A stretch of 64,000 bases of DNA. Origin: Gammaproteobacteria bacterium. Its GTDB lineage: Bacteria > Pseudomonadota > Gammaproteobacteria > HK1. Position 1 is the first letter of the stretch. Each line of letters begins with the position of its first letter. Below are positions 9,740 to 30,395 of the stretch, piece after piece. The translations under genes were made by a program, and so were the position numbers. The notes under the pieces were generated by a model that was not told the DNA's origin, ran no database searches, and saw only the letters and a program-made list of their open reading frames with translations. Location of the stretch: the NCBI GenBank assembly GCA_965221555.1, contig OZ244895.1:1294803-1358802 (forward strand), given 5' to 3'.

Positions 9740-10621
9740 TCACCCCTCTTCCCGGGCCCACCGCCGTTCGAAGGACCAGACCTCCTCGAAGCCCATGAGC
9801 ACGTGCATCTCGGAGAGAGTGAGTTGAGGGACGTCCGGGTCGGTGGTCGAGCCGTCGCCGCGCAGCCCCTTCATCGCCTGGCGCATGGCGCCGGCGGCGG
9901 GGAGCATGCCGATTGTGGGATGGATGGCGACGGCGAAGCCGAGGGATTCGAGCCGATTTGTGGACAGGATCGGCGTCTTTCCGCCCTCGACCATGTTGGC
10001 GAGCAGCGGTTTGTCGATGGCCTCCCCGATCCGCGCCATCTCTAGCTCGCTCTCCGGCGCCTCGATGAAGATCAGGTCGGCGCCGGCATCGGAATAGGCC
10101 CGGCCGCGTTCTATGGCCGCTTCCAGGCCCAGCTCCGTGCGCGCGTCCGTCCGGGCGACGACGAGGAAGTTCGGATCGCTACGGGCTTCGACCGCCACTT
10201 GCACTCTCTCGACCATGTCCCGGATCGGCACGACGCGTCTGCCCGGGGTATGCCCGCACTTCTTCGGAATCTCCTGATCCTCGAGCTGGATCGCGGCGCA
10301 ACCGGCTTCTTCGTAGCCCCGGACCGTGTGCCGGACGTTGAGCAGTCCGCCGAATCCGGTGTCCGCGTCGCAGATCAGCGGGGTACGGGTGCCCCCGGCG
10401 ATGGTCCGGACCCGATCCGCGAGATCGGCATAGGTGGCGAGACCAGCGTCCGGCAGCCCGAGGAGGGAGGCGGCGACGCCGTATCCCGTCATGTACAGCG
10501 CCTCGAACCCCATGCGGTCGGCGAGGCGGGCGGAGATCATGTCGTAGACGCCGGGGGCGACGACGAAGCGCCCCTCCCGGATGGCGCCGGCCAGTGCGGC
10601 GCGCTTCTCGTTCGCGTTCAT
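9740..10621 (-). CDS. isocitrate lyase/PEP mutase superfamily enzyme (2-methylisocitrate lyase / carboxyvinyl-carboxyphosphonate phosphorylmutase-like)
   Basis: PrpB-like motifs DADTGFGG, KKCGH and ARTDA. Confidence 0.85.
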   Translation of the reverse strand: MNANEKRAALAGAIREGRFVVAPGVYDMISARLADRMGFEALYMTGYGVAASLLGLPDAGLATYADLADRVRTIAGGTRTPLICDADTGFGGLLNVRHTVRGYEEAGCAAIQLEDQEIPKKCGHTPGRRVVPIRDMVERVQVAVEARSDPNFLVVARTDARTELGLEAAIERGRAYSDAGADLIFIEAPESELEMARIGEAIDKPLLANMVEGGKTPILSTNRLESLGFAVAIHPTIGMLPAAGAMRQAMKGLRGDGSTTDPDVPQLTLSEMHVLMGFEEVWSFERRWAREEG

Positions 10622-13126: not shown

Positions 13127-15340
13127 TTACCTGAGCGCCGCGTCGGCGCAGGAGCGAAACGCTTCGTCGGTCGCCACCGCGAGCTGTGCTCCGATCGACA
13201 GCTGGCCGTTGCCGTTCGCCCGACCGATCTGTCGAACCCGGGTGCCGTTGACCGAGAGCTCGGCTTCGACTTCCACTCCGCCGCCGTTCCGATGGTGGCA
13301 TAGCACATCGAAGCTCCAGCCCTCGCCGAGACGCTCGGTGAGTCGTACCACCAGATCTTCGATGGAGGGCGCGCCGGCGGGAGCTGAGGCCGGGGGCGGG
13401 CTCACCGCCCGCCCAGTGGAGTCGAGCGCCGCGGCCGGCCGATGTAATCCCGCGCCGCTGGCATGCGACGCGTCCGGGACACCCGCCGCGAGGGCCGGCC
13501 GTGGTTCCGGGGGCGCGCTGCCGCCAGGCCGGCCGGCCGTCGAGGAGCTCGAATCCCTCCCTTCTCCTCGCTTCGGATCGGAACGCATCCGCGAGCGCAG
13601 CGCCTCGGTGGCCCGCAGGTCGATGCTCTCGGTTTCGCGCTCCACTACCACCCCGTACGCCTGCCGGGCGTGCTCCACGGTGCAGAAGTCGTCGAGCACG
13701 TCTTCGAGCACCTGCTCGGGCGGCCGCTCCAGAGGATCGCCGTAGCCGCCGCCGCAGGGGGCGTAGACCGCCATCACGTCGCCTTCGGAGACCCGCAGCC
13801 CCGCGAACTTGGCCGGCATGTCCTGGATCTCGTCCGGGCGGGCGGCGTTGTAGATCTGGAGGGCGCCACACTGTCCGGGCGCACCGCCGAAGATGCCCCA
13901 GGGCACGTCGGTGTGGCGGTCGCACTCGTGGGTGATGAAGCCGCTGGTAAGTACCCGCTGCTTCTTGACCACGCCGATGCCGCCCCGGTAGCGCCCCGCA
14001 CCCGGCATCACGTCGTCCCGGAGCTCGTAGCGGTCGCAGATCATGGGGAGGTGGATGGCGAGGTCCTCGAGCGGATTGTTCCGGGTGTTGGCCATCAGAT
14101 TGTCGATGCTGTCGGGGCCGTCCGAGGCGGGCCTCCCTCCGTACGAGCCCTCGTTCACCTCCAGGAACACCCAGTACTCGCCGCTCGGCTTGACGCCGGA
14201 GTAGGCGGCGAAGGAGAGCGTCGCGGAGCTCCCGGCGATGATGTCGTTGGGCATCACCGGTGCGAGCGCCTTGTAGATCAGGTCGATGACGCGGTTTATC
14301 TGGGAGAATCGCGCCTCCGCCGCGGCGGGAAAACTCGGGTTGAAGATCGAGCCCTTGGGCGCGATGACCTCGATGGGGCGGAACGAGCCCTGGTTGGAAG
14401 GTACGTCTATCTCGCTCGTCTGCGCATCGAGGAGCAGGGATCGGATGGCACAGAAGCAGGCAACCTTGGTCGAACCCTCGAAAGGCACGTTGAAGCCGGT
14501 CTCGACCTGGTCCGCGGAGCCGGTGAGGTCGATCTCGATCCCGTCGCCCTTCACCCGCACGCAGACCTTGATGGGCAGGCGCACTTCGCGGTTTCGGCCG
14601 TCGTCGTCCAGCCATCCCTCGGCGCGGTACTCGCCGTCAGGTATCTCGGCGATACGCTGGCGCAGGACGCGCTCGGTGTAGTCCATGAGCTGGTGAGTGG
14701 CGGAGATCACCGTCTCCTTGCCGTAGCGGTCGAGCAGCTCCCCGAAGCGGCGCACCCCGAGGCGGGCGGAGGCGATCTGAGCGTCGAGGTCATCCTGGAG
14801 CTGGCGCGAGGCCCGGCTGTTCCTGCCGATGTACTCCCACAGCCCCTCGTTGCGCACGCCCCGTTCGTAGAGCTTGGTGCCCGCGAAGAGCATGCCCTCC
14901 GCGTACACGTCCGGTATGTCGATGATGAGGCCCGGGGTCGCCGCTCCGATGTCGAGGTGGTGCGCGGTGTTGGCCGAGAAGGCGACGAGCTCGCCTTCGT
15001 GGAACACGGGGATAACAATGGCGATGTCGGGGGAATGGCTGGATCCGTGGTACGGGTGGTTGTGGATGACCACGTCGCCCTCGTTCCAGACCCCGCCTTG
15101 CAGGGTGTCGCGGATACCTTCGAGGTATCCGGGAAGCGAGCCGATGTGAAGCGGTGTCGATTCCGACTCGCACAGGGTGTTGAAGTCGGTGTCGAAGAGT
15201 CCCGCTCCGAGGTCCTGAGACTCGCGGATGATCGAGGAGAAGGACATCCGGTAGAGGATGTGTCCCATCTCCTCCGCGATGGTATCGAGCGCTCCGCTTA
15301 TCACCTGCAGGGTGATGGGGTCGAGTTCCTGTCTGGCCAT
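13127..15340 (-). CDS. hyuB: hydantoinase B/oxoprolinase (HyuB-type) subunit carrying a roughly 150-aa C-terminal extension
   Basis: HyuB family motifs DPITLQVI and HNHPYHGSSH; 737 aa versus about 580 typical. The extra C-terminal domain follows a low-complexity linker. Confidence 0.9.
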   Translation of the reverse strand: MARQELDPITLQVISGALDTIAEEMGHILYRMSFSSIIRESQDLGAGLFDTDFNTLCESESTPLHIGSLPGYLEGIRDTLQGGVWNEGDVVIHNHPYHGSSHSPDIAIVIPVFHEGELVAFSANTAHHLDIGAATPGLIIDIPDVYAEGMLFAGTKLYERGVRNEGLWEYIGRNSRASRQLQDDLDAQIASARLGVRRFGELLDRYGKETVISATHQLMDYTERVLRQRIAEIPDGEYRAEGWLDDDGRNREVRLPIKVCVRVKGDGIEIDLTGSADQVETGFNVPFEGSTKVACFCAIRSLLLDAQTSEIDVPSNQGSFRPIEVIAPKGSIFNPSFPAAAEARFSQINRVIDLIYKALAPVMPNDIIAGSSATLSFAAYSGVKPSGEYWVFLEVNEGSYGGRPASDGPDSIDNLMANTRNNPLEDLAIHLPMICDRYELRDDVMPGAGRYRGGIGVVKKQRVLTSGFITHECDRHTDVPWGIFGGAPGQCGALQIYNAARPDEIQDMPAKFAGLRVSEGDVMAVYAPCGGGYGDPLERPPEQVLEDVLDDFCTVEHARQAYGVVVERETESIDLRATEALRSRMRSDPKRGEGRDSSSSTAGRPGGSAPPEPRPALAAGVPDASHASGAGLHRPAAALDSTGRAVSPPPASAPAGAPSIEDLVVRLTERLGEGWSFDVLCHHRNGGGVEVEAELSVNGTRVRQIGRANGNGQLSIGAQLAVATDEAFRSCADAALR

Positions 15341-15359
15341 GGCGGGATCTCCCGGCGGC

Positions 15360-17435
15360 TCAGTGGCCTTGCCGAATGAACAGGTTGCCGTGTGCGCCCA
15401 CCTCGCATTGATAGCGCGGCGGCACGAGAATCGTGGAGTTGTGCTGGATGAGGAGCGCGGGCCCCGGCACCCGGTGGCCGGCCTTGAGCTTCAACCGGTC
15501 GTAGCGCGGGGTGGAAACGCTCTCGCCGTCGTCGAAGGTGGTCTCGCGCGAGTACAGGTACGCCTCCTCGATCCCGAGTCCGTTCGCCGTCGCGAGCCTG
15601 GCCACCTCGAGCGGGGTCACCTCCTCGGTGCCGATGACCCGGATCGTGATGAGCTCGACCTCGCCGTCGTCGAAGGCGTAACCGTAATCCAGGCGGTGCT
15701 GGGCGTGGAAGCTCGCGATGATCTCGCGCACCGCCGCCACCCCGACTTCGCCGGGCGGGATCTCCGCGCGCAGCTCGAAGCCCTGGCCGTGGTAGCGACA
15801 CTCCGCGATGCGCTGGTAGCGCTGGCGTTGCGGGGGTACGCCGTCGTTCTCGAGGTCGCGGCGGCACTCCGCGACCAGCTCCGCGCTCAGCGCGTCGATG
15901 CGCCGTGCGCCGTCGGCGTCCGCGCGGGTGAGCGACATGATGAGGGAACGGGCGTGTTCGTACTGCATGTCGGTTTCGAGCAGGCCCATCGCCGCGGTGA
16001 TTCCGGGCGCGACCGGAACTATGACTTCCCGGGCTGACACCGCTTCGGCGAGCGCCACCCCGTGCAGGGGGCCGGCGCCCCCGAAGGGCACGAGCGAGAA
16101 CTCGCGGGGGTCGACGCCCCGGGCGACGGAGTTGGAGCGGATGGCAAGCGCCATGTTGGAGTTGATGACCCGGATGATTCCGAGCGCGGCTTCCCGTCGC
16201 GAAAGCCGGAGCGGCTTCGCGATCTTCTCCTCGATCGCACGTTCGGCGAGCGAGGGATCGATCGGCAGGTCACCGCCGAGCAGCTTGTCCGCATCGAGGC
16301 GCCCGAGCGCGACCTGGGCGTCGGTCACCGTCGGTTCCTCGCCGCCTCTGCCGTAGCAGGCGGGTCCGGGGTCGGCGCCGGCGGAGCGGGGGCCGACGTG
16401 GAATCCGCCCGCGGAGTCGATGTGGGCGATCGAGCCGCCGCCCGCGCCGATGGTGACCAGGTCGATCATCGGGACCAGGATCGGGTGGCCGCTCACGTAG
16501 GAGTCCCGCGGGTTCATGATCTTGATGCGCCCGTCGGGAATGGTGCTGATGTCGGCCGAGGTGCCGCCGATGTCGACGGTGATGAGGTTGTCGCTACCGC
16601 AGAGCAAGCCTTCGGAGCGGCCGCCGATGACCCCGCCCGCCGGACCCGACATCAGGATGCTCACCGCCCGCTTCGAGCAGGCCTCGATGGTGGAGATGCC
16701 TCCGTTCGACTGGATGAGGCGAAGCGCCGCGCCGAAGCCGTTGTCGGCAAGCTTCTTCTGCAGCCGGTGGAGGTACACGGTGGTCTTCGGGCCGATGAAC
16801 GCGTTCATCGCCGCGGTGGAGAAGCGTTCGAACTCCCGGATGACGTTGGCGACTTCGCTGGAGCAGCATACGTACACGCCGGGCATCTCCCGCTCGACGA
16901 TGGCCCGCGCCCGGCGCTCGTGGCTGTCGTTGATGAACGAGAAGAGGAAGCCGATTACCACCGACTCCACGCCGCGCCGCTTGAATACCTCGATGGCGTC
17001 GTGCACTTCGTCCTCGGCGAGCGCAGTCTCGATGCGCCCGTCCGGCGGGAGGATCCGCTCGGTGATCGGAATCCGGTTGCGGCGCTTGACCAGAGGTCGG
17101 TTCTGCCACGGCACTTCGAAGTGGAGCGAGAAGTTGTAGGGACGCTTGTGACGGCCGATGTGGAGGATGTCGCGAAAGTTCCGGGTGGTGAGCATGCCGA
17201 CTTCGGCGCCGTTGTGCTCGATGGTGATGTTGGTGGCCACGGTGGTTCCGTGGACGATGAGGTCGATGTCGCGGGGCGCGATCCCCGCCGTGTCGCAGAG
17301 CTCGCGCAGCCCCTGGAGCACCCCTTCGGACTGGTCGTGCGGAGTGCTCGGCACCTTGTGAAAGTGCACTCCGCGCGCCGACTCCAGCACCAGGTCGGTG
17401 TTGGTGCCCCCGACATCGACGCCGACCCGGTTCAT
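15360..17435 (-). CDS. hyuA: hydantoinase A/oxoprolinase (HyuA-type) subunit
   Basis: N-terminal MNRVGVDVGGTNTDLV. The ATG at 17435 overlaps the stop of the upstream gene (ATGA). Confidence 0.9.
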   Translation of the reverse strand: MNRVGVDVGGTNTDLVLESARGVHFHKVPSTPHDQSEGVLQGLRELCDTAGIAPRDIDLIVHGTTVATNITIEHNGAEVGMLTTRNFRDILHIGRHKRPYNFSLHFEVPWQNRPLVKRRNRIPITERILPPDGRIETALAEDEVHDAIEVFKRRGVESVVIGFLFSFINDSHERRARAIVEREMPGVYVCCSSEVANVIREFERFSTAAMNAFIGPKTTVYLHRLQKKLADNGFGAALRLIQSNGGISTIEACSKRAVSILMSGPAGGVIGGRSEGLLCGSDNLITVDIGGTSADISTIPDGRIKIMNPRDSYVSGHPILVPMIDLVTIGAGGGSIAHIDSAGGFHVGPRSAGADPGPACYGRGGEEPTVTDAQVALGRLDADKLLGGDLPIDPSLAERAIEEKIAKPLRLSRREAALGIIRVINSNMALAIRSNSVARGVDPREFSLVPFGGAGPLHGVALAEAVSAREVIVPVAPGITAAMGLLETDMQYEHARSLIMSLTRADADGARRIDALSAELVAECRRDLENDGVPPQRQRYQRIAECRYHGQGFELRAEIPPGEVGVAAVREIIASFHAQHRLDYGYAFDDGEVELITIRVIGTEEVTPLEVARLATANGLGIEEAYLYSRETTFDDGESVSTPRYDRLKLKAGHRVPGPALLIQHNSTILVPPRYQCEVGAHGNLFIRQGH

Positions 17436-18130
17436 GGATCGTTGGGACTCCGGTTCTCTAGAAGCAGATCGTCGAGGTAGGAAAGCACATTGGACAGCGG
17501 CTCGACGTCGCCGAATTTGGCGTCCATGTCGAAGAGATTCCATTCCACGAGGCCGGGTCCCCGATCGCCCACGCCCTCGCGCACCACGATCGGGCGGAAG
17601 CCCTCCGCGATCGCGTCCTCGCAGGTGTTGCGAACGCAGGCCGAGCAGGTCACCCCGGTCAGCAGCACGGTATCCACGTTGGCGGCGCGCAGGAAGCCCG
17701 CGAGCCAGGTTCCGTGAAAGGCGCTCGCGCGCTTCTTGACGATCACCTGCTCGTCGGCAAGCGGCGCCACCCGCTCGTCGATCGCGACCGCGTCACTGCC
17801 GGCCTGGAGCGCTTCGGCCGGGATCTTGAGGTGCCAGAGTCCCGCATCGGAGTTCGGTCCGGTCACGACGTTGTAGGCGGTGGTGGTGTACACGATGGGG
17901 ATCCGCTTGGCGCGCGCCGCCTTCAGCAGCGCCTGCACCGCGGGAATGATGGTGTCCATGCCCTCGCAGGAGAAGGCATGACCGGGACGGGTCCAGGCGT
18001 TGGCGAGATCGATGTTGATGAGGGCGGGGCGGGCGCCGTAGCCGACCCGGCGTCTGAATCCCCGGCCCGCGTAGATGTCCGAATCCGCCGCAAAGAGCGT
18101 CTCGAGGGCGCTTTTCAGGTCTTCATTCAT
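17432..18130 (-). CDS. isochorismatase-family cysteine hydrolase (N-carbamoylsarcosine amidase-like)
   Basis: Isochorismatase fold motifs with the catalytic Cys in VTCSACVRNT; 232 aa. Its stop overlaps the hyuA start. Confidence 0.8.
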   Translation of the reverse strand: MNEDLKSALETLFAADSDIYAGRGFRRRVGYGARPALINIDLANAWTRPGHAFSCEGMDTIIPAVQALLKAARAKRIPIVYTTTAYNVVTGPNSDAGLWHLKIPAEALQAGSDAVAIDERVAPLADEQVIVKKRASAFHGTWLAGFLRAANVDTVLLTGVTCSACVRNTCEDAIAEGFRPIVVREGVGDRGPGLVEWNLFDMDAKFGDVEPLSNVLSYLDDLLLENRSPNDP

Positions 18131-18285
18131 GAAGGCCTCCCTGGCTCTGTGACCTCAAGAATCGATTGGTTGCGGCCCGGCAGGACATGGCGTCCTGCGT
18201 ACTCCCGCGGATCATCCCGGGCTTCTCGCAGTCCGGCGTTTCGATCGGGGGCCATGCTGGACGACTCTCGGGGCGCGGGCCGCGC

Positions 18286-18795
18286 TCAGGCCCGTGTCTG
18301 GACGAGCCGGGCGCACACTGCGAGCGCGGAATCGACGGCACGGCGTTCGGCGTCACGTTCGGCCGCCACCGCCCCGCCGCCGACCCCCGGCGCGCGCTCG
18401 GCGCCGAGACTGAAGGCGGTACCCCCCGCGCTGCCGCTCACTCGGGGCCTGGACCCGGAAACGGGAGCGGAGCCATACACCGTGCGGGTGATGCCGCGTG
18501 CCGGTGCGTGAACCCGGCAGCGCACCGTCAACTCGCCGCCTTCCCGAATCCGTTCCACCACCTCGTACCGCCACCCGGGTCCGAGCCTCTCGTCCAGGGC
18601 GCGCTCCGCCGAAGTGCGGGAAGGAGCTGGCGCCGCGGCGCCCTCCGTGTGCGCCGCGCCACGGGACGGCGCTTCGCTCGAGCGCCGCGAAGGGTCGACA
18701 AGGGCGCCGCCGGCGAGCGCTTCCAACTCGCGACGACCGTGCTCGAGCATGTCGTCGAACGTGGAAGCGAAGCCGCTGAGACGACTGGCGGCCAT
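18286..18795 (-). CDS. hypothetical protein homologous to the C-terminal extension of HyuB (13127..15340)
   Basis: High GC3 and operon position. The segment RLGPGWRYEVVERIREGGELTVRCRV...AERDAERRAVDSALAVCARL aligns with HyuB's ERLGEGWSFDVLCHHRNGGGVEVEAEL...ATDEAFRSCADAAL. Confidence 0.55.
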   Translation of the reverse strand: MAASRLSGFASTFDDMLEHGRRELEALAGGALVDPSRRSSEAPSRGAAHTEGAAAPAPSRTSAERALDERLGPGWRYEVVERIREGGELTVRCRVHAPARGITRTVYGSAPVSGSRPRVSGSAGGTAFSLGAERAPGVGGGAVAAERDAERRAVDSALAVCARLVQTRA

Positions 18796-18866: not shown

Positions 18867-19769
18867 TCATTGCGCGGCCTTGCCTCTGGCCTCCAGACGC
18901 CGGAAGAACAGTGACAGACTGAAGCACAGGGTGAAGTAAAGCGCCGCCGTCGTGAGCCACGCTTCGAAGATCATCCCCGTGGAGTTGGCGAGGTCGACGG
19001 TCTTCAGAGTGAGGTCCTGGACGGATATCAGGGAGATGATGGCGCTGTCCTTGATCAGCGATATGAACTGGTTGGCGAGCGGCGGCAGCACCTTGCGCAG
19101 CGCTTGGGGCATGATGATGAAACGGGTCTCGTCGAGCCAGCTCATTCCCAGCGAACGGGCCGCCTCGCGTTGTCCCCGGTTGATGGATTCGATTCCGGCG
19201 CGGACGATCTCGCCGACGAATGCGCTCTCGAAGAGCGCGAGGACGATCACGCCGGAGACAAGCGACGGGAAGCGGCGCATGTCGCCGAAGAAGAATTCCC
19301 AGACTTCGTTGTCCTCCCGCCGGGCGATCGCGTAGGCCCAGTCCTCGATGTTCAACGCCGTGATCAGTTGCTCGGACAGGAAGAAGAAGAAGATGAAGAT
19401 GACGACGAGAGGAGGAATGTTGCGCAGGAACTCCAGGTAGGTGCGGGCAAGCATCCGCACGGTGAGGTTCGTCACGGTCCGCGCGACTCCCAGGATGATG
19501 CCCAGGATGAGCGCGAGAATGCTCGCGTAGATGCTGATCCGGATCGTTGTGATCAGGCCCTGAATGAGCACGTTCGCGGTCCACCGCCCCGTCTCCTCGT
19601 CATGGAAGAAGAGGTAGTTGGGGATCTGCTCCCAACGCCAGATGTAGTTGAGCTTGCCCTCGATCTGGAGCCACACGTAGGCGAAGAAGGCGACGAGGAT
19701 CGCGACAATCAGGAAGTCGACCCAATGGAGCCGCTTCCTGAGCACTCTGAACCTGAATGCGCCGGTCAC
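18867..19769 (-). CDS. polar amino acid ABC transporter permease
   Basis: HisM/HisQ-like permease with the EAA-type loop (SLGMSWLDETRFIIMPQALRKVLPPLANQF). Confidence 0.85.
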   Translation of the reverse strand: MTGAFRFRVLRKRLHWVDFLIVAILVAFFAYVWLQIEGKLNYIWRWEQIPNYLFFHDEETGRWTANVLIQGLITTIRISIYASILALILGIILGVARTVTNLTVRMLARTYLEFLRNIPPLVVIFIFFFFLSEQLITALNIEDWAYAIARREDNEVWEFFFGDMRRFPSLVSGVIVLALFESAFVGEIVRAGIESINRGQREAARSLGMSWLDETRFIIMPQALRKVLPPLANQFISLIKDSAIISLISVQDLTLKTVDLANSTGMIFEAWLTTAALYFTLCFSLSLFFRRLEARGKAAQ

Positions 19770-19835
19770 TTCCGTCGCCTCCCTCGGGTCCGCTCTGCCC
19801 GGGCAGTCCCGGGCAGAGCGGCCACTCGCCGCTGC

Positions 19836-20669
19836 CTATTGCGTGACCTGGTCGGACCAGTCCAGGGTCTTGAACCAGTAGTCGTGGCGTTCCTGCAGCC
19901 AGCCCGTGCGCCAGGAATGCGCGATCCAGTTGTTGAAGTAGTTGAGCGCGTCGGGATCACCCTTGCGAAGCGCGAAAGCCTCGCCACGCGGGTCCCACAG
20001 CTTTTCGAATGGAACGTACAGCGTGTCGGGATAGTTTGCCGCCTCGCGGTTCGGGGTGGGTTGCGCCGCCATCGTCGCATGGGCGTTGCCGTTCAACACC
20101 TCCTGGGCCGCCGCTCTGTCCTCGTCGAACTGGAGCATCTGCGCCTTCGGGAACAGCTCCGGGATGAGCACCGCTGGCGTGGCGCCTCGGCGGGTCGCGA
20201 AGGTCACGTCCTCGCTGTTGAAGTCCTCCAGAGTGAACCCTTCCGTCATCTGCCGGTTGGCGAGTACGGTCAGGCCGGAGTAGGCGTAGGCATCGGTGAA
20301 GTTGATGGTGAGGTTGCGTTGCGCCGTGACCGACATGCCGGCGATGATGACGTCGAACTTTCCCGCGACCAGGGCGGGGATGATCCCGTCCCAGGACGTG
20401 ACGAGAAACTCGGCCTCGACCCCCATGTCCTCGGCGAGCTTTCGGCCCACGTCGGGCTCGAAGCCGATGAGTTCGCCGGTCTTGTCGCGCATCGACCACG
20501 GCACGAAGAGCGAGAGACCGATCTTGATCACCCCCCGCTTCTTGATGGTCTCGATGACGCTTTCCGATGACAGGGCCTGGCTGGCCTGTTGCGCCAGGGA
20601 AGGCGTCGCGCCCGCCAGAGCAATGACTCCGGCCAGGGTCATGCCCAGTGTTCTTCTCGATAGACTCAT
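19836..20669 (-). CDS. ABC transporter substrate-binding protein (polar amino acid/opine type) with signal peptide
   Basis: N-terminal signal peptide and SBP_bac_3-like fold (KIGLSLFVPWSM...DVIIAGMSVTAQR). Confidence 0.85.
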   Translation of the reverse strand: MSLSRRTLGMTLAGVIALAGATPSLAQQASQALSSESVIETIKKRGVIKIGLSLFVPWSMRDKTGELIGFEPDVGRKLAEDMGVEAEFLVTSWDGIIPALVAGKFDVIIAGMSVTAQRNLTINFTDAYAYSGLTVLANRQMTEGFTLEDFNSEDVTFATRRGATPAVLIPELFPKAQMLQFDEDRAAAQEVLNGNAHATMAAQPTPNREAANYPDTLYVPFEKLWDPRGEAFALRKGDPDALNYFNNWIAHSWRTGWLQERHDYWFKTLDWSDQVTQ

Positions 20670-20705
20670 GGTCTTCCTCCCGTTTTTCGATGAGACCTTC
20701 GGTCT

Positions 20706-21494
20706 CTAGCTTCTGACCGCAAAGCGTTTCTCGAGTCCCGACACGAACGTCGACAGAATCAGGGTGACGGCAAGATAGACCGCCGCCACCGTGAACCAGA
20801 TCTCGAAGCTCATGTAGGTGTCGGAAATGATGTTGCGGCCAATGGTGGTCAGCTCCGCGACCGCGATCACACTCACGATTGCGGAGCTCTTGATAAGCTG
20901 CACCGCTTCATTGGTAAGCGGGGGCAGCATGACTTTTACCGACTGCGGAAGAATGATGAAGCGGTAGCTCTGGGCGACCGACATGCCGATCGACTTGGCC
21001 GCTTCCCATTGTCCCCTCGGAACCGAATTGATTCCGGCCCGAAAGATCTCCGATATCGTCGCCGAGTGATAGACGGCGAGGCAGATGATCGCCGCGATGT
21101 ACCGATCGAATTTGAATATCGGCCCGATGACGTAGTAGATCAGGTACAGGAGGACCAGCAGCGGTATGTTCCGGACGAATTCGAGATAGACGAGGGCGAC
21201 TCCGGACCCTACGAGCAGGCCGGAGAGCCTGAGCAGGGCGATGAACAGGCCGACGATCGTCGCAAGGAGAAAGGCCTTCACCGACAGATCGATCGACTTC
21301 AGCAGTCCGAAGATGATCTCTCCCCACTGGAAGCCGTCCTCCGTGAGGTTGTAGAGGTAGTCCGGCACCCGGTACCACTGCCAGTTGTAGCCCATGGCTT
21401 CGGCGCCGGCGAGGGAAATCCTGGCGATCAGGTAGATAACGATCAGGTAGAGGAGGATGGAGAACGGCTTCGAACGGAACAGGCCCTGGAGCAT
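20706..21494 (-). CDS. polar amino acid ABC transporter permease
   Basis: Permease with the EAA loop (SIGMSVAQSYRFIILPQSVKVMLPPLTNE). The internal start MLQGLF was preferred over the 302-aa table ORF. Confidence 0.8.
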   Translation of the reverse strand: MLQGLFRSKPFSILLYLIVIYLIARISLAGAEAMGYNWQWYRVPDYLYNLTEDGFQWGEIIFGLLKSIDLSVKAFLLATIVGLFIALLRLSGLLVGSGVALVYLEFVRNIPLLVLLYLIYYVIGPIFKFDRYIAAIICLAVYHSATISEIFRAGINSVPRGQWEAAKSIGMSVAQSYRFIILPQSVKVMLPPLTNEAVQLIKSSAIVSVIAVAELTTIGRNIISDTYMSFEIWFTVAAVYLAVTLILSTFVSGLEKRFAVRS

Positions 21495-21577
21495 GCGCGA
21501 GGCCTTCTGGATCGAAGTCTTGCGGGTTCGACCGATCCCGGATCCAGACGTGTTTTCCAAGACCCTTCCCATGTCGA

Positions 21578-22320
21578 TCAGTGTTCCAGAATCTGCTCGA
21601 GGAAGGCCCGGCACCTCTTGCTCGAAGGGTTCTCGAAGAAGCGCTCCGGTGGCGCCGTCTCCACGATCCGGCCGTCTTCCATGAATACCATCTGGTCGGC
21701 GACCTTTCGGGCAAAGCCCATCTCATGGGTAACGCAGACCATGGTCATGCCGGTTCCGGCCAGCTCCACCATGACGTCCAGCACCTCGTTGATCATCTCC
21801 GGGTCCAATGCCGAGGTGGGCTCGTCGAAGAGCATGATCCTCGGTTCCATGCACAGCGATCGGGCAATCGCGACCCGTTGCTGCTGTCCTCCCGAGAGCT
21901 GTGCCGGATACTTGTCCGCCTGTTCCGGAATATGGACCCGTTCGAGATAGGTCCTTGCCCGCTCCTCGGCGTCGGCTCGGGAGACCTTTCGCACCCGGAT
22001 CGGACCTACGGTGAGATTTTCCAGCACGGTCAGATGAGGAAAGAGATTGAACTGCTGGAATACCATCCCGACCTCCATCCGGATGGCGCGGATGTTCGGG
22101 GTCTCGTCGCTGAGCTCCGTTCCGTCGACGATCAACTGCCCACCCGAATGCTCCTCCAGGCGATTGATGCATCGTATCAGCGTGGACTTGCCGGAGCCGG
22201 ATGGACCGCAGATGACGACCCGTTCGCCCGCGTTTACGGTGAGGCTCACATCGGCGAGCGCCTGAAATCCGCCAAAGAACTTGTCCAGGTTGCGGATTTC
22301 TATAATGGGTCTTGAATCGC
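21578..22320 (-). CDS. amino acid ABC transporter ATP-binding protein
   Basis: Walker A GPSGSGKST, signature LSGGQQQRV and Walker B LFDEPTSALD. GTG start inferred at about 22320. Confidence 0.9.
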
Positions 22321-22599
22321 TTGCCACCAGCCAGGCTCGGATTCCGCGAACGAGCGAAAAGAGAACCTGAACACGCCAGAACCCAGGTGTCAATGAGCGT
22401 CGAAAGGGCCGCACCGGCCGCGTGGATGGCGTGACGGATGGCGCCCGCGGACCGGACGCGAGCCGGCATTCTCTCCTCTCGCGTAGGGGGTGGGACCTGT
22501 CGCGGCCGGATTGAGGTGGCCCGGGATGCGCTGCCGGGTCCGATTCCCCCGTCTTCCCGAGGCACGTACACTTGTCGTTCAGTCTCGGGAGGACCCTGG

Positions 22600-23721
22600 A
22601 TGACCGACCACGTGAGGCCGGACGCTCCGAGCCGCATGCCGCCCATGGATCCGCGCTACCGCCGGATGGCCGAATGGCAGTGGCGCAGACAGATGATGCC
22701 GACACAGCGGGGCGCAGATCCCGAGCGCGCCGCGGGCGCCGCCGGTCCGGCCGGCGCCGCCCGCTATCGCCCGCGACCTCTCGTGCCTTCGCGGGCCTCG
22801 CCCGGCGCGGCCCGGGGGTCGTCCTCGGTGCGCCGGCACGCGGGCGGCAAGGAGATCTTCTGTGCCTTCGGGGTGGACGTGGATGCGGTGGCGGGCTGGC
22901 TCGGCTCCTACGGCGGGGAGGACTCGCCCTGCGACATCTCCCGGGGACTCTTCTCCGGCGAGGTGGGAGTACCCCGGCTGGTCGAGCTCTTCCGCCGCTT
23001 CGACATCCGCACCACCTGGTTCATTCCCGGACACTCCATAGAGACCTTTCCGGAGCAATGCCGCATGGTGGCCGATGCCGGACACGAGATCGGCATTCAT
23101 GGCTACTCCCACGAGAACCCGATCGCGATGACCCGCGAGCAGGAAACGGCGGTACTCGACAAGTGCATCGACCTCGTCGAGCGGCTCGCGGGGCGGCGGC
23201 CGACCGGCTACGTCGCCCCGTGGTGGGAGTTCAGCCCGGTCACCAACCAGTTGCTGCTGGAGCGCGGGATCAAGTACGACCACAGTCTGATGAACGACGA
23301 CTTCCATCCCTTCTACGTGCGGGTGGGAGACTCCTGGACGAAGATCGACTACTCCCGAAACGCCGACGAGTGGATGAAGCCGCTGGTGCGGGGCGAGGAG
23401 ACCGATCTCATCGACATTCCGGGCAACTGGTATCTCGACGACCTGCCGCCGATGATGTTCATCAAGTCCGCTCCGAACAGCTTCGGCTTCATCAACCCGC
23501 GCGACATCGAGGAGCTGTGGCGTGACCAGTTCGACTGGGTATACCGCGAGTACGACTACGCGGTCTTCACGATGACCATCCACCCCGACGTGTCGGGCCG
23601 CCCTCAGGTTCTGCTCATGCTGGAGCGGATCCACGAGTATCTGAGCTCCCATCCCGGAGTGCGCTTCTGCACCTTCGACGACATCGCCGACGACTTCCGG
23701 CGGCGGTGCCCGCGCCAATGA
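22600..23721 (+). CDS. polysaccharide deacetylase (NodB-fold) family hydrolase
   Basis: Motifs TWFIPGHS and [11 protein letters not shown]. The start is uncertain; the first in-frame ATG after the divergent promoter region is about 22600. Confidence 0.75.
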
Positions 23722-23722
23722 C

Positions 23723-24079
23723 ATGTGCAGCCTGTGCGGCATCCTCGCGGGCCGGAGGCACTGGACGGAGAGCTCCGCAAACCCCGAGGTGTTCGCGGGT
23801 AGGCGCCGGGCCCACACCGTGGGCCGCGAGCGCCAGCACCGTACCCGCGTCCTGAACGTCGTCCTCGCCCCCTACGGGCTCTCGGTCTCCGATTGGGCCG
23901 GGAGCCGCTACGTCCTGCGCAGCCGCACCGGTCGCAGTGCGCTCGTCGAGAATCTGAACGAGCTCTGGGCGGAGGCGGAGAAGATGCTCGGACGACCCTG
24001 CGACCCCCTCGACCCCTCGCTGATTTCCGCCTTGCCCCGCGCCCCGGATACGGGGCCGGCACTGCATGCGGGGCGATGA
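23723..24079 (+). CDS. hypothetical small basic protein translationally coupled between the deacetylase and the COG0523 GTPase
   Basis: The ATG lies 2 nt after the upstream stop and the stop overlaps the next ATG (ATGA). There is no domain call. Confidence 0.35.
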   Translation: MCSLCGILAGRRHWTESSANPEVFAGRRRAHTVGRERQHRTRVLNVVLAPYGLSVSDWAGSRYVLRSRTGRSALVENLNELWAEAEKMLGRPCDPLDPSLISALPRAPDTGPALHAGR

Positions 24080-25116
24080 GCGCCTACGCGGACCTCGTCC
24101 CGGTCAACGTTCTCACCGGCTCGCTCGGCAGCGGCAAGACGACTCTGCTGAGAGAGCTCCTGCGCGCGCCGGGTCTCCGGGACACCGCGGTGCTCGTCAA
24201 TGAGCTCGGCGAGGTCGGCATCGATCATCACCTCATCGAGCATGCCACCGAAAGCACTCTGCTCCTCGAGAACGGCTGCCTGTGCTGCGCGATGCGCGAC
24301 GACATGAAGACCTCCCTGAAGGATCTGCACTCGCGTCGAGACCGTGCGGAGGTGCCACGCTACGAGAGGGTGGTGGTCGAGACCTCGGGAGTCGCCGACC
24401 CCGCGCCCATCGCCTATACCCTGATCGCGGAGCCGGTGCTCATGCACCACTACCGGCTCGGCAACGTGGTGACGCTCGTCGACGCGGTCAATGCGCGGGC
24501 GCAGCTGGAACGATTCGAGACCTCGGTCAAGCAGGTGGCGCTTGCGGATCGGCTGGTGCTGAGCAAGGTCGACCTCGCCGATGCGGGGGAGGTGCACGCG
24601 CTGCGTTCGCGCCTTGCCGCGCTCAACCCGGGCGCCCCCCTGCTCGAATCAGGCGCCCCGGACCTCGACCCGGTCGATCTGCTCGTCGCCGATCCCTACG
24701 AGGCGGCGGCGAAGGCGGCGGATATCGAGAAGTGGCGGGGCCGACTCGCGGCCGGGGGCGACGAACGCAGCCCTCACTCCGAGACGGTCGAGGCACACTG
24801 TTTCACCTTCGACCGGGAACTGGACTGGACCGCATTCGGGATCTGGATGACGATGCTGCTGCATCGCCACGGCGACCGGGTGCTGCGAATCAAGGGCCTG
24901 CTGAACGTGTCGGGGATGCCGGGTCCGGTACTCGTCAACGGCGTGCAGCACATCGTGCATCCCCCCGCCCATCTGGACGCCTGGCCCGGGGCGGACCGGC
25001 GCTCCCACCTCGTGGTCATCCTGGACGGCCTCGGCTTCGACGCGGTGGCCCGCTCGCTCGAAGCCTTCAACGCGATCGCGAATCACTCCGGCGAAGGCGC
25101 GCCAGCCAGGGGATGA
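24077..25116 (+). CDS. CobW/COG0523 family GTPase (putative metallochaperone)
   Basis: GSLGSGKTT P-loop, the CxCC motif (GCLCCAMRD) and a C-terminal CobW_C-like region. Confidence 0.85.
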
Positions 25117-25953: not shown

Positions 25954-26107
25954 GTCGTATCTGAGGTGCGGCGGCGCGGCCGCGGGCGCCGCGCCATCTC
26001 GCTCGGAGGGGTCGAGCGGATGGTAGACTAAAGTCCTGTGTCGCGCACGGGAGCTTGGGAGGATCAGCGCGAGGCTCGGGATCGATGTCGGTGGCACCTT
26101 CACCGAC

Positions 26108-28141
26108 TTGTTGCTGCAGGACGAGCAGAGCGGCGAGATCCACCTGCGAAAGACGCCCTCCACCCCCGAGGATCAGTCCATCGGGCTGATTACCGGAACC
26201 GCCGCGCTCCTCTCCGATACCGGCACGCAAGCGCGCGACGTGCGCTCCGTGCTCCACGGCACCACGGTGTCGACCAACATCGTGCTGGAGGAAAAGGGCG
26301 CGAAGGTGGGGTTGCTCGTCACCGAGAACTTCGAGCAGCTGCTCCACCTCGCGCGCTCCCAGACGCCGGGCCCGCTTGCGGGCTGGATGATCATGAAGAA
26401 GCCCGATCCGCTTGCGGATCTGGCGCTCACCCGGGGGGTCGCGGAGCGGATCGACGCGCGCGGGCGGATCCTCCGGCCCCTCGACGAGGACGCGGCCCGC
26501 GCCGCGATCCGCGAGCTGCTGGATGCGGGCATCGAGTCGCTCACCATCTCTCTGTTGCACGCCTATGCGAACGACGTGCACGAACGGCGTCTGAAGGCGC
26601 TCGTGGAGGAGACCGGCAGCGACGTGCCGGTCTCGCTCTCCTCCGAGATCCTCCCCGAGTTCAGGGAGTACGAGCGCACGCTGGTCACGGTGATGAACGC
26701 CTACGTGCGTCCGAGCATGCGGCGATATCTGCGCAATCTCGACGACAAGCTCAAGGGGCTCAACCTGGATGCGCGGGTGCACATCGTGCGCTCCGACGGG
26801 GGGTTGATGAGCGTCGAGCGTGCGACCGAGTCGCCCGCCCACACCATGCTATCCGGACCGGCGGGGGGCGTGTCGGGCGCGGCATTCGTGGCCGGGCGCG
26901 CGGGGTACCGCAATGCGCTTGGATTCGACATGGGCGGCACTTCGACCGACGTCTCCCTGGTGCGCGACGGCGAGCCCACCATCTCGCGCCAGACCTCGCT
27001 CGGCTACTATCCGGTGAAGGTGCCCTCGGTCGAAGTCCACAGCGTCGGGGCGGGCGGCGGCTCCATCGCCCACGTCCCGATGACCGGAGCGCTGCGGGTC
27101 GGACCCCAGAGCGCGGGCGCGCGGCCCGGCCCCGCCTGTTACGGCCACGGCGGCACCCTGCCCACCGTGACCGATGCCAACGTGGTGCTCGGGCGTCTGC
27201 CCCCCCGTCTCCTGGGCGGCGAGATGGCCCTCGATCCGGCGGCCTCGGCGTCCGCGCTCGGCCCCGTCGCGCGCGCCCTCGGCCTGGACGTGCACCAGGC
27301 CGCGCAGGGCGTCCTGGATATCGTCAACGAGAACATGTTCGGAGCCCTGCGGCTGGTGACGGTGCAAAAAGGGCTCGACCCGCGCGACTTTGCGCTCGTC
27401 GCCTTCGGCGGCGCCGGACCCCTGCACGGAAACGCGCTCGCCATCCTCGCCGGGTGCTTTCCGGTCATCGTGCCCCCCACCCCCGGAGTCCTCTCCGCGC
27501 TCGGCTTCCTGTGCTCCGACGTCAAGAACGAGTTCGCCCGCACCTACATCCGTCCCATCGACGAGGCCGATCCGCAAGACGTGCGTGGCGTGCTCGAAGA
27601 CCTGGGCGAGCAGGCCCGGGGCTGGCTCCGGGACGAGGGGGTGGCGGAAGCGCAGCACTCGCTTCGTTTCGAAGCGGACCTTCGTTACCTGCGCCAGGGG
27701 TACGAGTTCCCGCTCGAGGTGGAGCCGCGCTCGCTCGCCAATGGCGGGTTTGCCGCGCTCACGGAGCGCTTCGGCCAGTCGCACGAGCAGTTGTACGGAT
27801 TCCGGCTCGACCATCCGGTGGAGCTCGTCAACCTGCGCGCGGTCGGGGCGGCGGGGGTGGTGAAGGTCGAGTTCCCGCGCTTCGAGCGCGGGGATGCCGA
27901 CTCGGCGCAGGCGGTCACGGGCGATACCCGGGTGTATTTCGAGGGCCGGCTTCTCACCGCTCTCGTCTATGAGCGCAGTGACTTGCGCGCCGGGCACGAA
28001 GTGCGCGGACCCGCGATCGTCACCCAGCGCGACTCGACCACTCTGATCCACCCCGGACACGTCGGAGAGGTCGACGAGTACTTGAACATCCTCATTCGGC
28101 CCGCGGTCGAGTCCGCGGGCGGGAGCATGCGACATGGCTGA
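26108..28141 (+). CDS. hyuA: hydantoinase A/oxoprolinase (HyuA-type), second copy; N-terminus unresolved
   Basis: HyuA family along its whole length. The conserved GIDVGGTFTD motif is encoded upstream (26078-26107) of the first ATG/GTG/TTG, and the open frame begins at 26027. Confidence 0.85.
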   Translation: MLLQDEQSGEIHLRKTPSTPEDQSIGLITGTAALLSDTGTQARDVRSVLHGTTVSTNIVLEEKGAKVGLLVTENFEQLLHLARSQTPGPLAGWMIMKKPDPLADLALTRGVAERIDARGRILRPLDEDAARAAIRELLDAGIESLTISLLHAYANDVHERRLKALVEETGSDVPVSLSSEILPEFREYERTLVTVMNAYVRPSMRRYLRNLDDKLKGLNLDARVHIVRSDGGLMSVERATESPAHTMLSGPAGGVSGAAFVAGRAGYRNALGFDMGGTSTDVSLVRDGEPTISRQTSLGYYPVKVPSVEVHSVGAGGGSIAHVPMTGALRVGPQSAGARPGPACYGHGGTLPTVTDANVVLGRLPPRLLGGEMALDPAASASALGPVARALGLDVHQAAQGVLDIVNENMFGALRLVTVQKGLDPRDFALVAFGGAGPLHGNALAILAGCFPVIVPPTPGVLSALGFLCSDVKNEFARTYIRPIDEADPQDVRGVLEDLGEQARGWLRDEGVAEAQHSLRFEADLRYLRQGYEFPLEVEPRSLANGGFAALTERFGQSHEQLYGFRLDHPVELVNLRAVGAAGVVKVEFPRFERGDADSAQAVTGDTRVYFEGRLLTALVYERSDLRAGHEVRGPAIVTQRDSTTLIHPGHVGEVDEYLNILIRPAVESAGGSMRHG

Positions 28142-30233
28142 TTTGAAACCGCCCGGCGCCGGCGTCTCCCTCGACCAGCTCCTGAAAGCCAATCGCGCCC
28201 ACTTCGATCGCATCCTCGGCGCACGACAGCGCGAAGCGAGTGAAATGGGCAACGGCCGGCCCGCCGAGTTCGAAGAAGGGACGCGGGCGGAATTGCCGCT
28301 GCCGGGTCCGGGCAACGGGGCAGAGAGCGCACCGACTCGACCCGAGGCCCTTGCCCCCCGCGGGCAGACCGCGCGGGAGCATACGCCGTCCCCCGTCCCG
28401 GGGCCGCTCCCGGGTTCCACGGCATCGGAACGCGAGACGCGCGGTGACGGCGAACTCGATCCGATCACTCTCGACCTCATCGAGAACGCGCTGCGCAACG
28501 CTCGACATGAAATGGACGCGGTGCTGTTTCGCTCCGCGATGTCGCCCGTGATTCGTGAGCAGCACGACGAGTTTCCGATGATCACCGACGCCGCGGGCCG
28601 GATGATCGTCGGCCAGTTCGGTTCCTACGTTTCCGAGATGCTGGCGGAGCAGGCATTCGACCTGGAGCCGGGCGACATCATCCTGCAGAGCGACCCCTAC
28701 CTGTGCGGAGGAGCGATCAGCCACATCAACGACTGGATGGTCCTGATCCCGATCTTCTTCGAGGGAGAGCTGGTCGGATTCAGCTCGATGTTCGGCCACA
28801 TGATGGATGTGGGCGGCCCGGTGCCGTGCAGCATGCCGACCGCGGCCACCTCCATCTTCGGGGAGGGTATCCGCATCCCGCCCATCAAGATCTACGCGCG
28901 AGGCGAGCCGAACGACGCCGCCATGAGAATTCTCATGAACAACTCGCGCACGCCCGAGATGAACTACAGCGATCTCATGGCGATCATCGCGGGCAGCCGC
29001 ACCGGCGAGCGGCGCGTCATCGAAATGTGCCGGCGTTTCGGGGTCGAGACCTACAAGAAGGCCTGCGAGGCGCTGCTGAAGCGGACCGAACGGGCGATGC
29101 GCGCGCTCATCGTCAGGAATCTCCCCGAGGAGCCGCAGTCCTTCGAGGACTATGTCGATGACGACGGGCTCGGGAACGGCCCCTTCAAGCTCAAGCTCAC
29201 GCTGTGGCGCGAGGGCGAGCATGCCTACTTCGACTGGACCGGCACCTCGCCGCAGGCGCCGGGGCCTGTCAACTTCTACCTGCACGAAGGCATGTTCAAG
29301 ATGTTCATCGGGGTGTACATGATCATGGTGTTCGACCCCCAGATCCTGTTCAACGACGGCTTCTACGACCTCATCCACGTCACCCTGCCGAAGGGCTCCC
29401 TGCTCCATCCCGACTTTCCCGCCGCGCTCGGGTCGCGCACCCACGCACTCGCCCGCCAGTTCGATGTGCTCGGTGGCGCGCTCAGCAAGAACGCGCCGGA
29501 GATGGCCACCGCGGCCGGTTACGGATCGAGTCCCCACTTCCTCTATTCGGGCGTGGATCGCGAGGGCCGCCCCTTCCAGCTCATGGAGATTCTCTACGGC
29601 GGGATTCCCGGACGGCCGATAGGCGACGGCATGGACGGACACTCGTGGTGGCCGCTCTTCGAGAACATCCCTTCGGAGTACCTGGAGAGCTACTACCCGA
29701 TGCTCATCGAGAGCTACGCGAGCCGGCCGGACACCGGCGGCGCGGGGCGGCACCGGGGCGGCAACGGGGTGGAGAAGGTCTATCGGCTGCTCGAACCGGG
29801 AGAGGTCTCGATCCACGACGACCGCCATCTCTCCCAGCCCTGGGGCATCCTCGGCGGCCAGCCGGGAGGCGTGTCCGAGAAGTGGCTGGTCCGGGCGGAC
29901 GGCTCGCGCGAACCGCTCGGCTCCAAGGTCGACAACGTACGCGTCGGCACCGGTGACCGCATCGTGTTCCGCACCGCGGGGGGCGGGGGATGGGGAGATC
30001 CGCTCGAGCGCGAGCCCGAACGGGTGCGCGCCGACGTGCACCGGCGCCTCATGAGCGCGGAGAAGGCGGAGCGCGACTACGGCGTGGTCCTCTCGGGCGA
30101 GGAGCGGGATATCGATATCGCCGCGACCGGCGCCCGGCGCGAGTCCATCCGCCGCAGTCGCGGGCCGCTGCCCACCTACGATTTCGGGGAGCGTCCCTGG
30201 GAGCGCGCCGGCCTCGACCTCGCGGCGGAGTGA
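28134..30233 (+). CDS. hyuB: hydantoinase B/oxoprolinase (HyuB-type), second copy, with a roughly 105-aa disordered N-terminal extension
   Basis: HyuB motifs after ELDPITLDLIEN. The ATG at 28134 overlaps the hyuA stop by 8 nt. The N-terminus is Pro/Gly/Glu-rich. Confidence 0.9.
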   Translation: MADLKPPGAGVSLDQLLKANRAHFDRILGARQREASEMGNGRPAEFEEGTRAELPLPGPGNGAESAPTRPEALAPRGQTAREHTPSPVPGPLPGSTASERETRGDGELDPITLDLIENALRNARHEMDAVLFRSAMSPVIREQHDEFPMITDAAGRMIVGQFGSYVSEMLAEQAFDLEPGDIILQSDPYLCGGAISHINDWMVLIPIFFEGELVGFSSMFGHMMDVGGPVPCSMPTAATSIFGEGIRIPPIKIYARGEPNDAAMRILMNNSRTPEMNYSDLMAIIAGSRTGERRVIEMCRRFGVETYKKACEALLKRTERAMRALIVRNLPEEPQSFEDYVDDDGLGNGPFKLKLTLWREGEHAYFDWTGTSPQAPGPVNFYLHEGMFKMFIGVYMIMVFDPQILFNDGFYDLIHVTLPKGSLLHPDFPAALGSRTHALARQFDVLGGALSKNAPEMATAAGYGSSPHFLYSGVDREGRPFQLMEILYGGIPGRPIGDGMDGHSWWPLFENIPSEYLESYYPMLIESYASRPDTGGAGRHRGGNGVEKVYRLLEPGEVSIHDDRHLSQPWGILGGQPGGVSEKWLVRADGSREPLGSKVDNVRVGTGDRIVFRTAGGGGWGDPLEREPERVRADVHRRLMSAEKAERDYGVVLSGEERDIDIAATGARRESIRRSRGPLPTYDFGERPWERAGLDLAAE

Positions 30234-30395
30234 GGGGACGAGAAGCCCCCGAGCCCGGCAATGCGGCGGGTCCCTCGGTCGCCGACGGAAGCGACGACCG
30301 CCGCAATTCGGGAGTCGGAGTCGACCCAAGGCGTGGCGCGGCCGCTTCCGTCGGCACGCCGATACCGCGGCGACGAGTGGGCCGAATGCAATGAG

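Follow-up and report, generated by a model that had tools for sequence, protein, structure and literature searches.

The stretch of DNA analyzed here, 64,000 nucleotides of a Gammaproteobacteria bacterium (assembly GCA_965221555.1, contig OZ244895.1, positions 1,294,803 to 1,358,802; hereafter, the window), carries two hyuA-hyuB gene pairs. The product of hyuB copy 1 ends in a module of about 80 amino acids (aa) that recurs in a 169-aa protein, orf169, and this module is a truncated Rad52/Rad22-type domain of which only the alpha-beta-beta-beta-alpha core remains. Together with a short helix motif, located at the N-terminus of orf169 and of HyuB copy 2, the module constitutes a two-piece accessory kit confined to a single branch of the ATP-dependent HyuA/HyuB hydantoinases/lactamases. 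The helix motif, the Rad52-like module and the catalytic core of HyuB are here termed H, M and C, respectively.

Identity of the shared module

A preliminary description of this DNA had presented HyuB copy 1 as a 737-aa protein in which a Ser/Pro/Ala-rich linker precedes a terminal module of about 80 aa, and both its coordinates and its sequences are as reported there. The gene (13127..15340, minus strand) encodes a catalytic core at residues 1-586 (13583..15340; Pfam Hydantoinase_B, PF02538, E 1.4e-156), a disordered linker rich in Ala, Pro, Ser and Gly (residues 587-658, 72 aa; 13367..13582) that lies outside every family model, and the module itself (residues 659-737, 79 aa; 13130..13366). 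The Pfam match covers residues 7-536 only, and the solved N-methylhydantoinase 7hk5 (E 3.8e-181) and CapB (6yra) align to residues 6-584 only. The open reading frame (ORF) of orf169 (18286..18795, minus strand) is likewise 169 aa long and is found upstream in the same orientation, separated from hyuB by hyuA and the gene of an isochorismatase-like hydrolase. Family conservation and AlphaFold2 (AF2) modelling divide orf169 into the helix motif (residues ~4-29, SRLSGFASTFDDMLEHGRRELEALAG; 18709..18786), a low-complexity linker of variable length and sequence among homologues (residues ~30-58; 18622..18708), for which the predicted local distance difference test (pLDDT) falls below 50 at residues 30-56, and the Rad52-like module (residues 59-169; 18289..18621), in which a Gly/Ser-rich beta-hairpin is inserted after strand 3, ahead of the last helix.

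That HyuB and orf169 share the same module, as had been proposed, is upheld by pairwise BLASTP (E 2e-7, 32% identity) and by the comparison of a HyuB C-module profile with a small-ORF module profile in hhalign (probability 95.5%, E 1.5e-8, 70 columns), the result of which lies far above the 50% set beforehand as the lower limit for accepting the similarity. A broader HyuB profile yields a probability of 90.7% in the same comparison, and chance similarity can thus be discarded. The 169-aa ORF is conserved in related genomes, with homologues in 39 protein clusters at 42-71% identity and in a far wider family; the close homologues have the start codon in common, vary in the middle and conserve the C-terminal half. 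The survey of HyuB homologues for the C-terminal extension, performed by searching with the full-length protein, identified the module in 119 of the 120 closest homologues listed (68-88% identity, 704-779 aa, Rhodospirillaceae and Arenicellales included), and the C-terminus of the sole module-less case (P0056) is garbled. In these 119 proteins the linker spans 34-101 aa and is rich in Ala, Pro, Ser and Arg, without conservation. A word-indexed search with 86 aa of the HyuB module returned two short fragments and nothing more, and exact-sequence look-ups for HyuB, orf169 and P0001 gave no match.

The preliminary description had considered the module to match no known family, a statement that profile and fold comparisons overturn. 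An exhaustive HMMER search of 1.84 billion representatives with a profile of both module types retrieved 651 proteins at E <= 1e-3, and the best 150 of these include about 45 proteins of 190-240 aa. All five sampled matches of ~200-230 aa pass the Pfam Rad52_Rad22 cut-off (E 1e-10 to 1e-16). An alignment of 21 such Rad52-type matches, five members of which were checked against PF04098 and found to lie above its cut-off, is matched in hhalign by the HyuB-module profile with a probability of 99.4% (E 2e-21) and by the orf169-module profile with one of 97.6% (E 2.8e-12), and the same alignment matches solved yeast and human Rad52 at about E 1e-6. Direct comparisons fall short of this: PF04098 does not match HyuB, orf169 or the isolated modules (even at E <= 10 for four isolated modules searched against all of Pfam), hhalign of the module profile against the single human RAD52 sequence is not significant (probability 0.1%), and the module profile gives only noise against PDB sequences. 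One fusion protein carrying the module (P0218) approaches the PF04098 cut-off of 20.3 bits with a score of 19.5 bits. The relationship is remote yet, by way of the intermediate family of bacterial Rad52 proteins, well supported.

The predicted structures agree with this assignment. In the AF2 models, pLDDT exceeds 90 in the module of orf169 and reaches 95 in the module of HyuB copy 1 modelled alone, with a predicted template modelling score of 0.85. Both modules consist of a helix, three antiparallel strands and a long helix, thereby presenting the beta-beta-beta-alpha core fold of Rad52/Rad22, and orf169 adds the Gly/Ser-rich hairpin before the last helix. In structure comparisons, the HyuB module scores highest against human RAD52 (9.9, with 79 of 79 residues superposed at 1.7 Å), followed by Mgm101 (9.5), yeast Rad52 (9.0), double-stranded RNA (dsRNA)-binding domains (at most 8.1), phage Sak (7.7) and Red-beta (7.3), and orf169 scores 8.3 against yeast Rad52 and 7.9 against human RAD52. 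Assignment of the module to the dsRNA-binding domains was rejected, these providing neither sequence membership nor the best structural match.

What the module has lost can be read from an alignment that sets both module types beside bacterial Rad52 proteins and a human RAD52 sequence, the numbering of which recovers R55, Y65, K102, K133, K152, R153 and R156. The modules start only at the helix before strand 1, and the hairpin segment with the equivalents of R55 and Y65 is therefore absent. Also missing are the G(V/I)G(L)xLY segment that succeeds the last helix in Rad52 and everything beyond it. The positions of K152 and R153 are occupied by Arg or Lys in part of the HyuB-type modules (RS, RK, RR) and by Ala in orf169, and the R156 position is kept in orf169 only, so that the complete single-stranded DNA (ssDNA)-binding groove (human R55, Y65, K152, R153 and R156) is found in none of the modules. 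At the position of A154, the modules present an invariant Cys, as do bacterial Rad52 proteins. Net charge has a median of about -1 in HyuB modules (isoelectric point about 6) and of about +2 in orf169 modules. In view of the lost hairpin, the partial retention of groove residues and the charge, survival of a canonical ssDNA-annealing groove in the module appears unlikely. The Gly/Ser-rich insert (orf169 residues ~112-140; 18376-18462), with a conserved G-x-x-G-x-x-F-S/R-L-G pattern and a predicted beta-hairpin, is a feature of small-protein modules; it is absent from HyuB-type modules and from the small proteins P0038, P0296 and P0306.

The helix motif, fusions and gene neighborhood

The N-terminal half of orf169 had been reported as disordered, which is accurate for the variable residues ~30-58 and inaccurate for residues ~4-29 (RLSGFASAFDDMLERSRREMDALSG): no other stretch of the small-protein family is as strongly conserved (consensus S-S-x-F-D-x-M-L-x-x-N-R-x-x-L-D-x-L), and AF2 predicts a helix at residues 7-29. 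The same helix motif opens HyuB copy 2 (28134..30233, plus strand, 699 aa), which begins MADLKPPGAGVSLDQLLKANRAHFDRIL and continues through a linker of ~75 aa straight into the core, thus displaying an H-C architecture (H at residues ~9-31, 28158-28226; core from ~28452; Pfam core match at residues 109-623). No Rad52-like module was detected in HyuB copy 2 with the profile hidden Markov model (HMM). HyuB copy 2 is 54% identical to P0275, a protein of the H-M-C type, and its helix motif aligns to P0275 residues 11-31; a relative at locus L002 has a 697-aa HyuB of the same H-C form. In hhalign, the profile of small-protein N-termini matches that of type-2 HyuB N-termini with a probability of 96.3% (E 1.5e-9), and a helix HMM built from the small proteins alone reaches HyuB copy 2 only at E 0.11. 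In the 6225 ORFs of all the loci retrieved, H was located on small proteins and at the N-termini of type-2 HyuBs and nowhere else; it invariably occupies the very N-terminus, ahead of a disordered linker.

Fusions complete the pattern. M-C proteins, in which the module is followed by a linker and the HyuB core, are represented by P0172, P0162 and P0186, and H-M-C proteins by P0218, P0221 and P0275 and by loci L021, L023, L033, L038 and L043. The latter amount to the architecture of the small protein (H plus M) fused to the HyuB N-terminus in other organisms, and hence to a Rosetta-stone link between the two proteins. The window therefore holds H-M (orf169), C-M (HyuB copy 1) and H-C (HyuB copy 2) combinations, and H-M-C and M-C occur elsewhere; the order of the three pieces is nearly unrestricted, with the module at either end of HyuB, and the linkers between them are long, disordered and not conserved. 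This distribution of pieces identifies orf169 as a free-standing accessory subunit of the enzyme system.

Gene order was analyzed in two sets of loci. The close set comprises 13 related loci from uncultured Gammaproteobacteria and Ectothiorhodospiraceae, in which the small gene adjoins the isochorismatase-family gene, followed by hyuA and by a hyuB of 712-765 aa; the HyuB linker varies freely and the terminal module is retained. AhpC-like genes take the place of the isochorismatase-family gene in L004. Three loci of close relatives deviate with regard to hyuB. In L001, the small gene, the isochorismatase-family gene and hyuA are followed by a methyltransferase gene (13581-14381), without hyuB; in L009, an 85-aa hyuB fragment (13298-13543) follows hyuA and a complete hyuB lies 1.7 kb further on (15251-17491), which suggests an insertion; and in L010 no hyuB was found within the flank. 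The distant set comprises 24 loci and stems from a metagenome scan, the query of which was a sub-alignment of remote small proteins sharing 27-43% identity with orf169. The small gene directly follows the isochorismatase-family gene in 22 of them, the contigs of the other two being too short, and hyuA and hyuB are present wherever the flank suffices. In all, orf169 homologues keep this setting, as far as the flanks show, in 36 loci besides that of the window. Loci L029, L038 and L041 present the order isochorismatase-small-hyuA-hyuB(C-M), a divergent hyuA-hyuB(H-M-C) unit appears in L021, L023, L025, L026, L033, L034 and L038, and L016 combines the C-M and H-M-C types. The earlier proposal that a fused and a free copy of the module point to an accessory component of the hydantoinase is thus reinforced by synteny, by the H-M-C fusions and by the presence of the module in nearly all the HyuB homologues surveyed. 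Taken together, the identity of the module and its role in an accessory component are highly probable.

In the window, the ORF list and Pfam matches define a compact minus-strand row that reads, 5' to 3', ABC (ATP-binding cassette) uptake genes, orf169, isochorismatase-family hydrolase, hyuA and hyuB. The uptake genes (18867..22705) code for a permease (18867-19769), a substrate-binding protein of the SBP_bac_3 family (19836-20669), a second permease (20706-21614) and an ATPase (within 21578-22705). The isochorismatase-family hydrolase (17432..18130, 232 aa; PF00857, E 4.8e-31) has a stop codon that overlaps the start of hyuA copy 1 (15360..17435, 691 aa; Hydant_A_N, Hydantoinase_A and Hydant_A_C, PF05378, PF01968 and PF19278) in an ATGA sequence, suggesting translational coupling. 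This overlap and the comparison with homologues establish the ATG at 17435 as the true start of hyuA; the longest ORF (15360-17543, 727 aa) runs 36 codons too far into the isochorismatase-like gene. An operon scan found no promoter-like or terminator-like sites between the ABC uptake genes and hyuB copy 1. A gene of the phosphoenolpyruvate mutase/isocitrate lyase family (9740-10621, minus strand) lies near this cluster, and genes of the same family occur near the hyu clusters of L016 and L043. Between the two hyu clusters of the window lies a gene for a CobW-type G3E GTPase, a putative metallochaperone (23893-25116, plus strand), which may be linked to the metal site of the HyuB subunit. In L004 (7354-9840) and L016 (4041-5778), cobW and a polysaccharide-deacetylase/DUF2334 gene are located directly upstream of the isochorismatase/small-protein pair.

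The second hyuAB pair belongs to a conserved set (25450-34644) that is whole in L043 and partial in L014 and L016. It begins with a multi-pass membrane protein of ~170 aa (25450-25956, minus strand, divergent from hyuA2) and continues with hyuA2, hyuB2, a 935-aa Band_7/SPFH protein (30597-33404) and an ABC ATPase (33340-34644), and it may represent a membrane-associated HyuAB system. No ATG, GTG or TTG lies between the in-frame stop at 26024-26026 and the conserved N-terminus GIDVGGTFTD of hyuA copy 2, the first canonical start being a TTG at 26108, after the motif. A GGGAGG directly precedes an ATC at 26063, and the anomaly could be due to a non-canonical start or to a sequence error. Homologues of multi-pass membrane proteins (~153 aa and ~350 aa; 46-74% identity) are encoded at 39629-40078 and 40434-41375 (minus strand). 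These have no Pfam family and adjoin hyuAB, amidase and substrate-binding protein genes in L002, L014 and L016; those of the window probably belong to the same catabolic regulon, at a different place in the genome. A 171-aa gene beside the second hyuAB of L002 was considered as a third small-protein copy and rejected, as it codes for an unrelated membrane protein.

Accessory role and alternative explanations

The presence of a Hydantoinase_B domain with an adjoining HyuA partner places the enzyme in the HyuA/HyuB family of ATP-dependent hydantoinases, oxoprolinases and lactamases. NCBIfam scores of 577 bits for CapA and 248 bits for CapB, against a cut-off of 1000 for both, do not make it a caprolactamase/acetophenone carboxylase equivalog, and N-methylhydantoinase 7hk5 is the closest solved relative of the HyuAB core. 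N-methylhydantoinase-like activity is our best guess for HyuAB copy 1, judging from 7hk5 and from the neighboring isochorismatase-like hydrolase. The isochorismatase-family hydrolase shows weak NCBIfam similarity to RutB and BiuH, and isochorismatase-like cysteine hydrolases include N-carbamoylsarcosine amidase. From the combination of ABC import genes, HyuAB and an isochorismatase-like hydrolase, it seems most likely that the operon would import and open a hydantoin-like or cyclic amide compound and then hydrolyze the carbamoyl product. In the related CapAB, the alpha subunit phosphorylates the substrate with ATP and the beta subunit opens the ring, the whole forming an (alpha-beta)2 tetramer on a CapB dimer (PMC8453981).

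Within such a pathway, we incline, with modest confidence, towards the reading of the Rad52-derived module and the docking helix as an accessory or adaptor system of this HyuAB subfamily. On this reading, orf169 would associate physically with the enzyme and might affect its assembly or dosage. M would keep the self-association of the ring-forming Rad52 core and not its ssDNA groove, and would consequently act as a flexibly tethered protein-protein association domain, with the M of orf169 co-assembling with the M of HyuB copy 1. H would be a short docking helix tying this assembly to a further partner, for which the HyuAB core, the always-adjacent isochorismatase-like hydrolase, which probably takes the ring-opened product, and the membrane and Band_7 proteins beside the H-bearing HyuB copy 2 are candidates. 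The net effect would be the scaffolding or clustering of successive enzymes of hydantoin- or lactam-type catabolism, rather than catalysis. The specific contacts put forward here, between modules and through H docking, are a tentative model and somewhat doubtful.

Several observations weigh against this reading. The structural models of M are those of monomers. In Rad52, the N-terminal hairpin and the C-terminal helices contribute to ring contacts, and a truncated core devoid of both may have lost self-association. H and M are also lost separately (H-C here, M-C in P0172) and are perhaps not one functional unit. The HyuB-type modules keep a basic residue at K152 and/or R153, so that they may have some affinity for nucleic acid. 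Finally, L014 and L015 encode a C-M HyuB with no small protein within 10 kb, and the H-M-C HyuB of L043 has neither an isochorismatase-like gene nor a small protein in its vicinity, exceptions which indicate that the small protein is not obligatory.

The alternatives to an adaptor system differ in which piece they consider decisive. H might be a targeting peptide that recruits HyuAB, directly in the case of HyuB copy 2 or via orf169 in that of HyuB copy 1, to an SPFH/Band_7 scaffold or to small membrane proteins, with M as a mere connector. Such targeting would fit the invariable placement of H before a disordered linker, its occurrence without M on HyuB copy 2 and the neighborhood of H-bearing type-2 hyuAB genes, which in the window, L043 and L014 includes genes for a 170-aa membrane protein, a Band_7 protein of 850-945 aa and an ABC ATPase. 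The orf169 operon, however, has no Band_7 gene, and many small-protein loci present only the isochorismatase-like gene and hyuAB. We regard targeting as an unlikely primary role of H; it overlaps the adaptor reading without displacing it.

A second alternative looks to the ancestry of M. A Rad52-like capacity to bind nucleic acid, if retained by the module, would anchor the hydantoinase on ssDNA or RNA and serve either moonlighting autoregulation or the delivery of the enzyme to hydantoin-type oxidized bases. The domain does descend from ssDNA-annealing proteins and shares its fold with dsRNA-binding domains, the basic residues just mentioned persist in HyuB-type modules, as does R156 in orf169, and hydantoin lesions of guanine occur in DNA (PMC12623156). 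Nonetheless, the modules no longer possess the hairpin that bears the counterparts of R55 and Y65, neither subfamily conserves the groove residues as a group, the HyuB modules are slightly acidic, and the neighboring genes are those of a catabolic operon (ABC importers, amidases, isochorismatase-like hydrolases), with no DNA-repair genes among them, so that retention of nucleic-acid binding appears distinctly unlikely. Its most far-reaching form, in which such binding would bring the HyuAB branch, its adaptor and the isochorismatase-like amidohydrolase to DNA or RNA, there to open hydantoin-type oxidized bases in place or on their release, is extremely unlikely; were it correct, it would constitute an unrecognized enzymatic route for guanidinohydantoin, spiroiminodihydantoin and 5-hydroxyhydantoin lesions.

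The module could also be a regulatory or autoinhibitory domain that binds a small molecule, like the C-terminal domain of isopropylmalate synthase, with orf169 as a competing decoy. Structural matches of this kind do occur, but they rank far below Rad52 and Mgm101, the sequence homology is to Rad52 proteins and not to regulatory domains, and the long non-conserved linkers and the placement of M at either terminus speak against a fixed allosteric contact, all of which renders regulation of this sort very unlikely. Lastly, the probability that the HyuB extension is read-through into non-coding GC-rich DNA, that orf169 is spurious and that their similarity is one of composition only is negligible: GC at third codon positions is indeed lower in the HyuB tail and orf169 (0.77-0.79) than in adjoining genes (0.85-0.89), and second-position GC is high in orf169 and the HyuB linker, but both elements are kept in frame across dozens of genomes despite variable linkers, the profile comparisons are significant and the AF2 models are confident, which excludes an artefact.

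Significance and comparison with known systems

Annealing domains of the Rad52 type are familiar from proteins of DNA repair and phage recombination. The fold family of the module is known; its occurrence in truncated form, fused to a metabolic enzyme, as a dedicated small protein and in the company of a helix motif is undescribed in the sources searched. Full-text searches brought up no paper naming both Rad52 and hydantoinase and none on a C-terminal extension of HyuB; neither orf169 nor the module is covered by a model in Pfam, NCBIfam, PHROGs or PADLOC. The lack of PHROGs and PADLOC matches for both orf169 and HyuB also gives no indication of a phage or defence link. A cut-down Rad52 domain with most of its DNA groove gone, tied to a metabolic enzyme family by fusion at either end or as a small subunit of its own, would clearly exemplify a recombination fold put to a use unrelated to DNA. 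For enzymology, the accessory system of module, docking helix and small adaptor is the hallmark of a HyuAB branch that is large and mostly of marine or uncultured origin, and it could matter for the expression of such enzymes, for instance in creatinine/N-methylhydantoin sensing or lactam hydrolysis. For annotation, it provides names for two elements that now have no Pfam or NCBIfam match.

The HyuA and HyuB cores of the window are clear family members, like CapA/CapB (6YRA) and N-methylhydantoinase (7HK5), for which no extra domain or small subunit has been described; unlike in these enzymes, HyuB copy 1 of the window continues past the core, and the alignments stop at residues 582-584. As a small extra protein of a HyuA/HyuB-type ATP-dependent enzyme, orf169 resembles, in concept only, the gamma subunit of acetone and acetophenone carboxylases, a Cys-rich, Zn-binding protein. 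The preliminary description had already set the two apart, correctly so, given that orf169 has a single Cys, no Zn motif, no Pfam match and a different, Rad52-like fold; its single Cys and its fold led us to reject orf169 as such a gamma subunit. For H, an analogy can be drawn with N-terminal docking or encapsulation peptides that carry flexible linkers, such as the cargo peptides of bacterial microcompartments, with which it shares a short N-terminal amphipathic helix, a non-conserved linker and attachment to different cargo proteins. Unlike with microcompartment cargo, no shell or compartment genes lie near the hyu genes of the window.

The closest sequence relatives of the module are bacterial Rad52_Rad22 proteins of ~200-230 aa (P0208, P0210 and P0279), which its profile detects at E 1e-9 to 1e-11 and with which it shares the invariant Cys in the last helix. 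In contrast to the module, these proteins possess a full Rad52 N-terminal domain and a C-terminal helical domain, match phage single-strand annealing protein families and have no link with HyuB. Across the wider Rad52/Rad22 family (PF04098), which includes human RAD52, yeast Rad52, Mgm101 and phage Sak, the module of HyuB and orf169 differs in sitting on or beside a metabolic enzyme instead of recombination genes.

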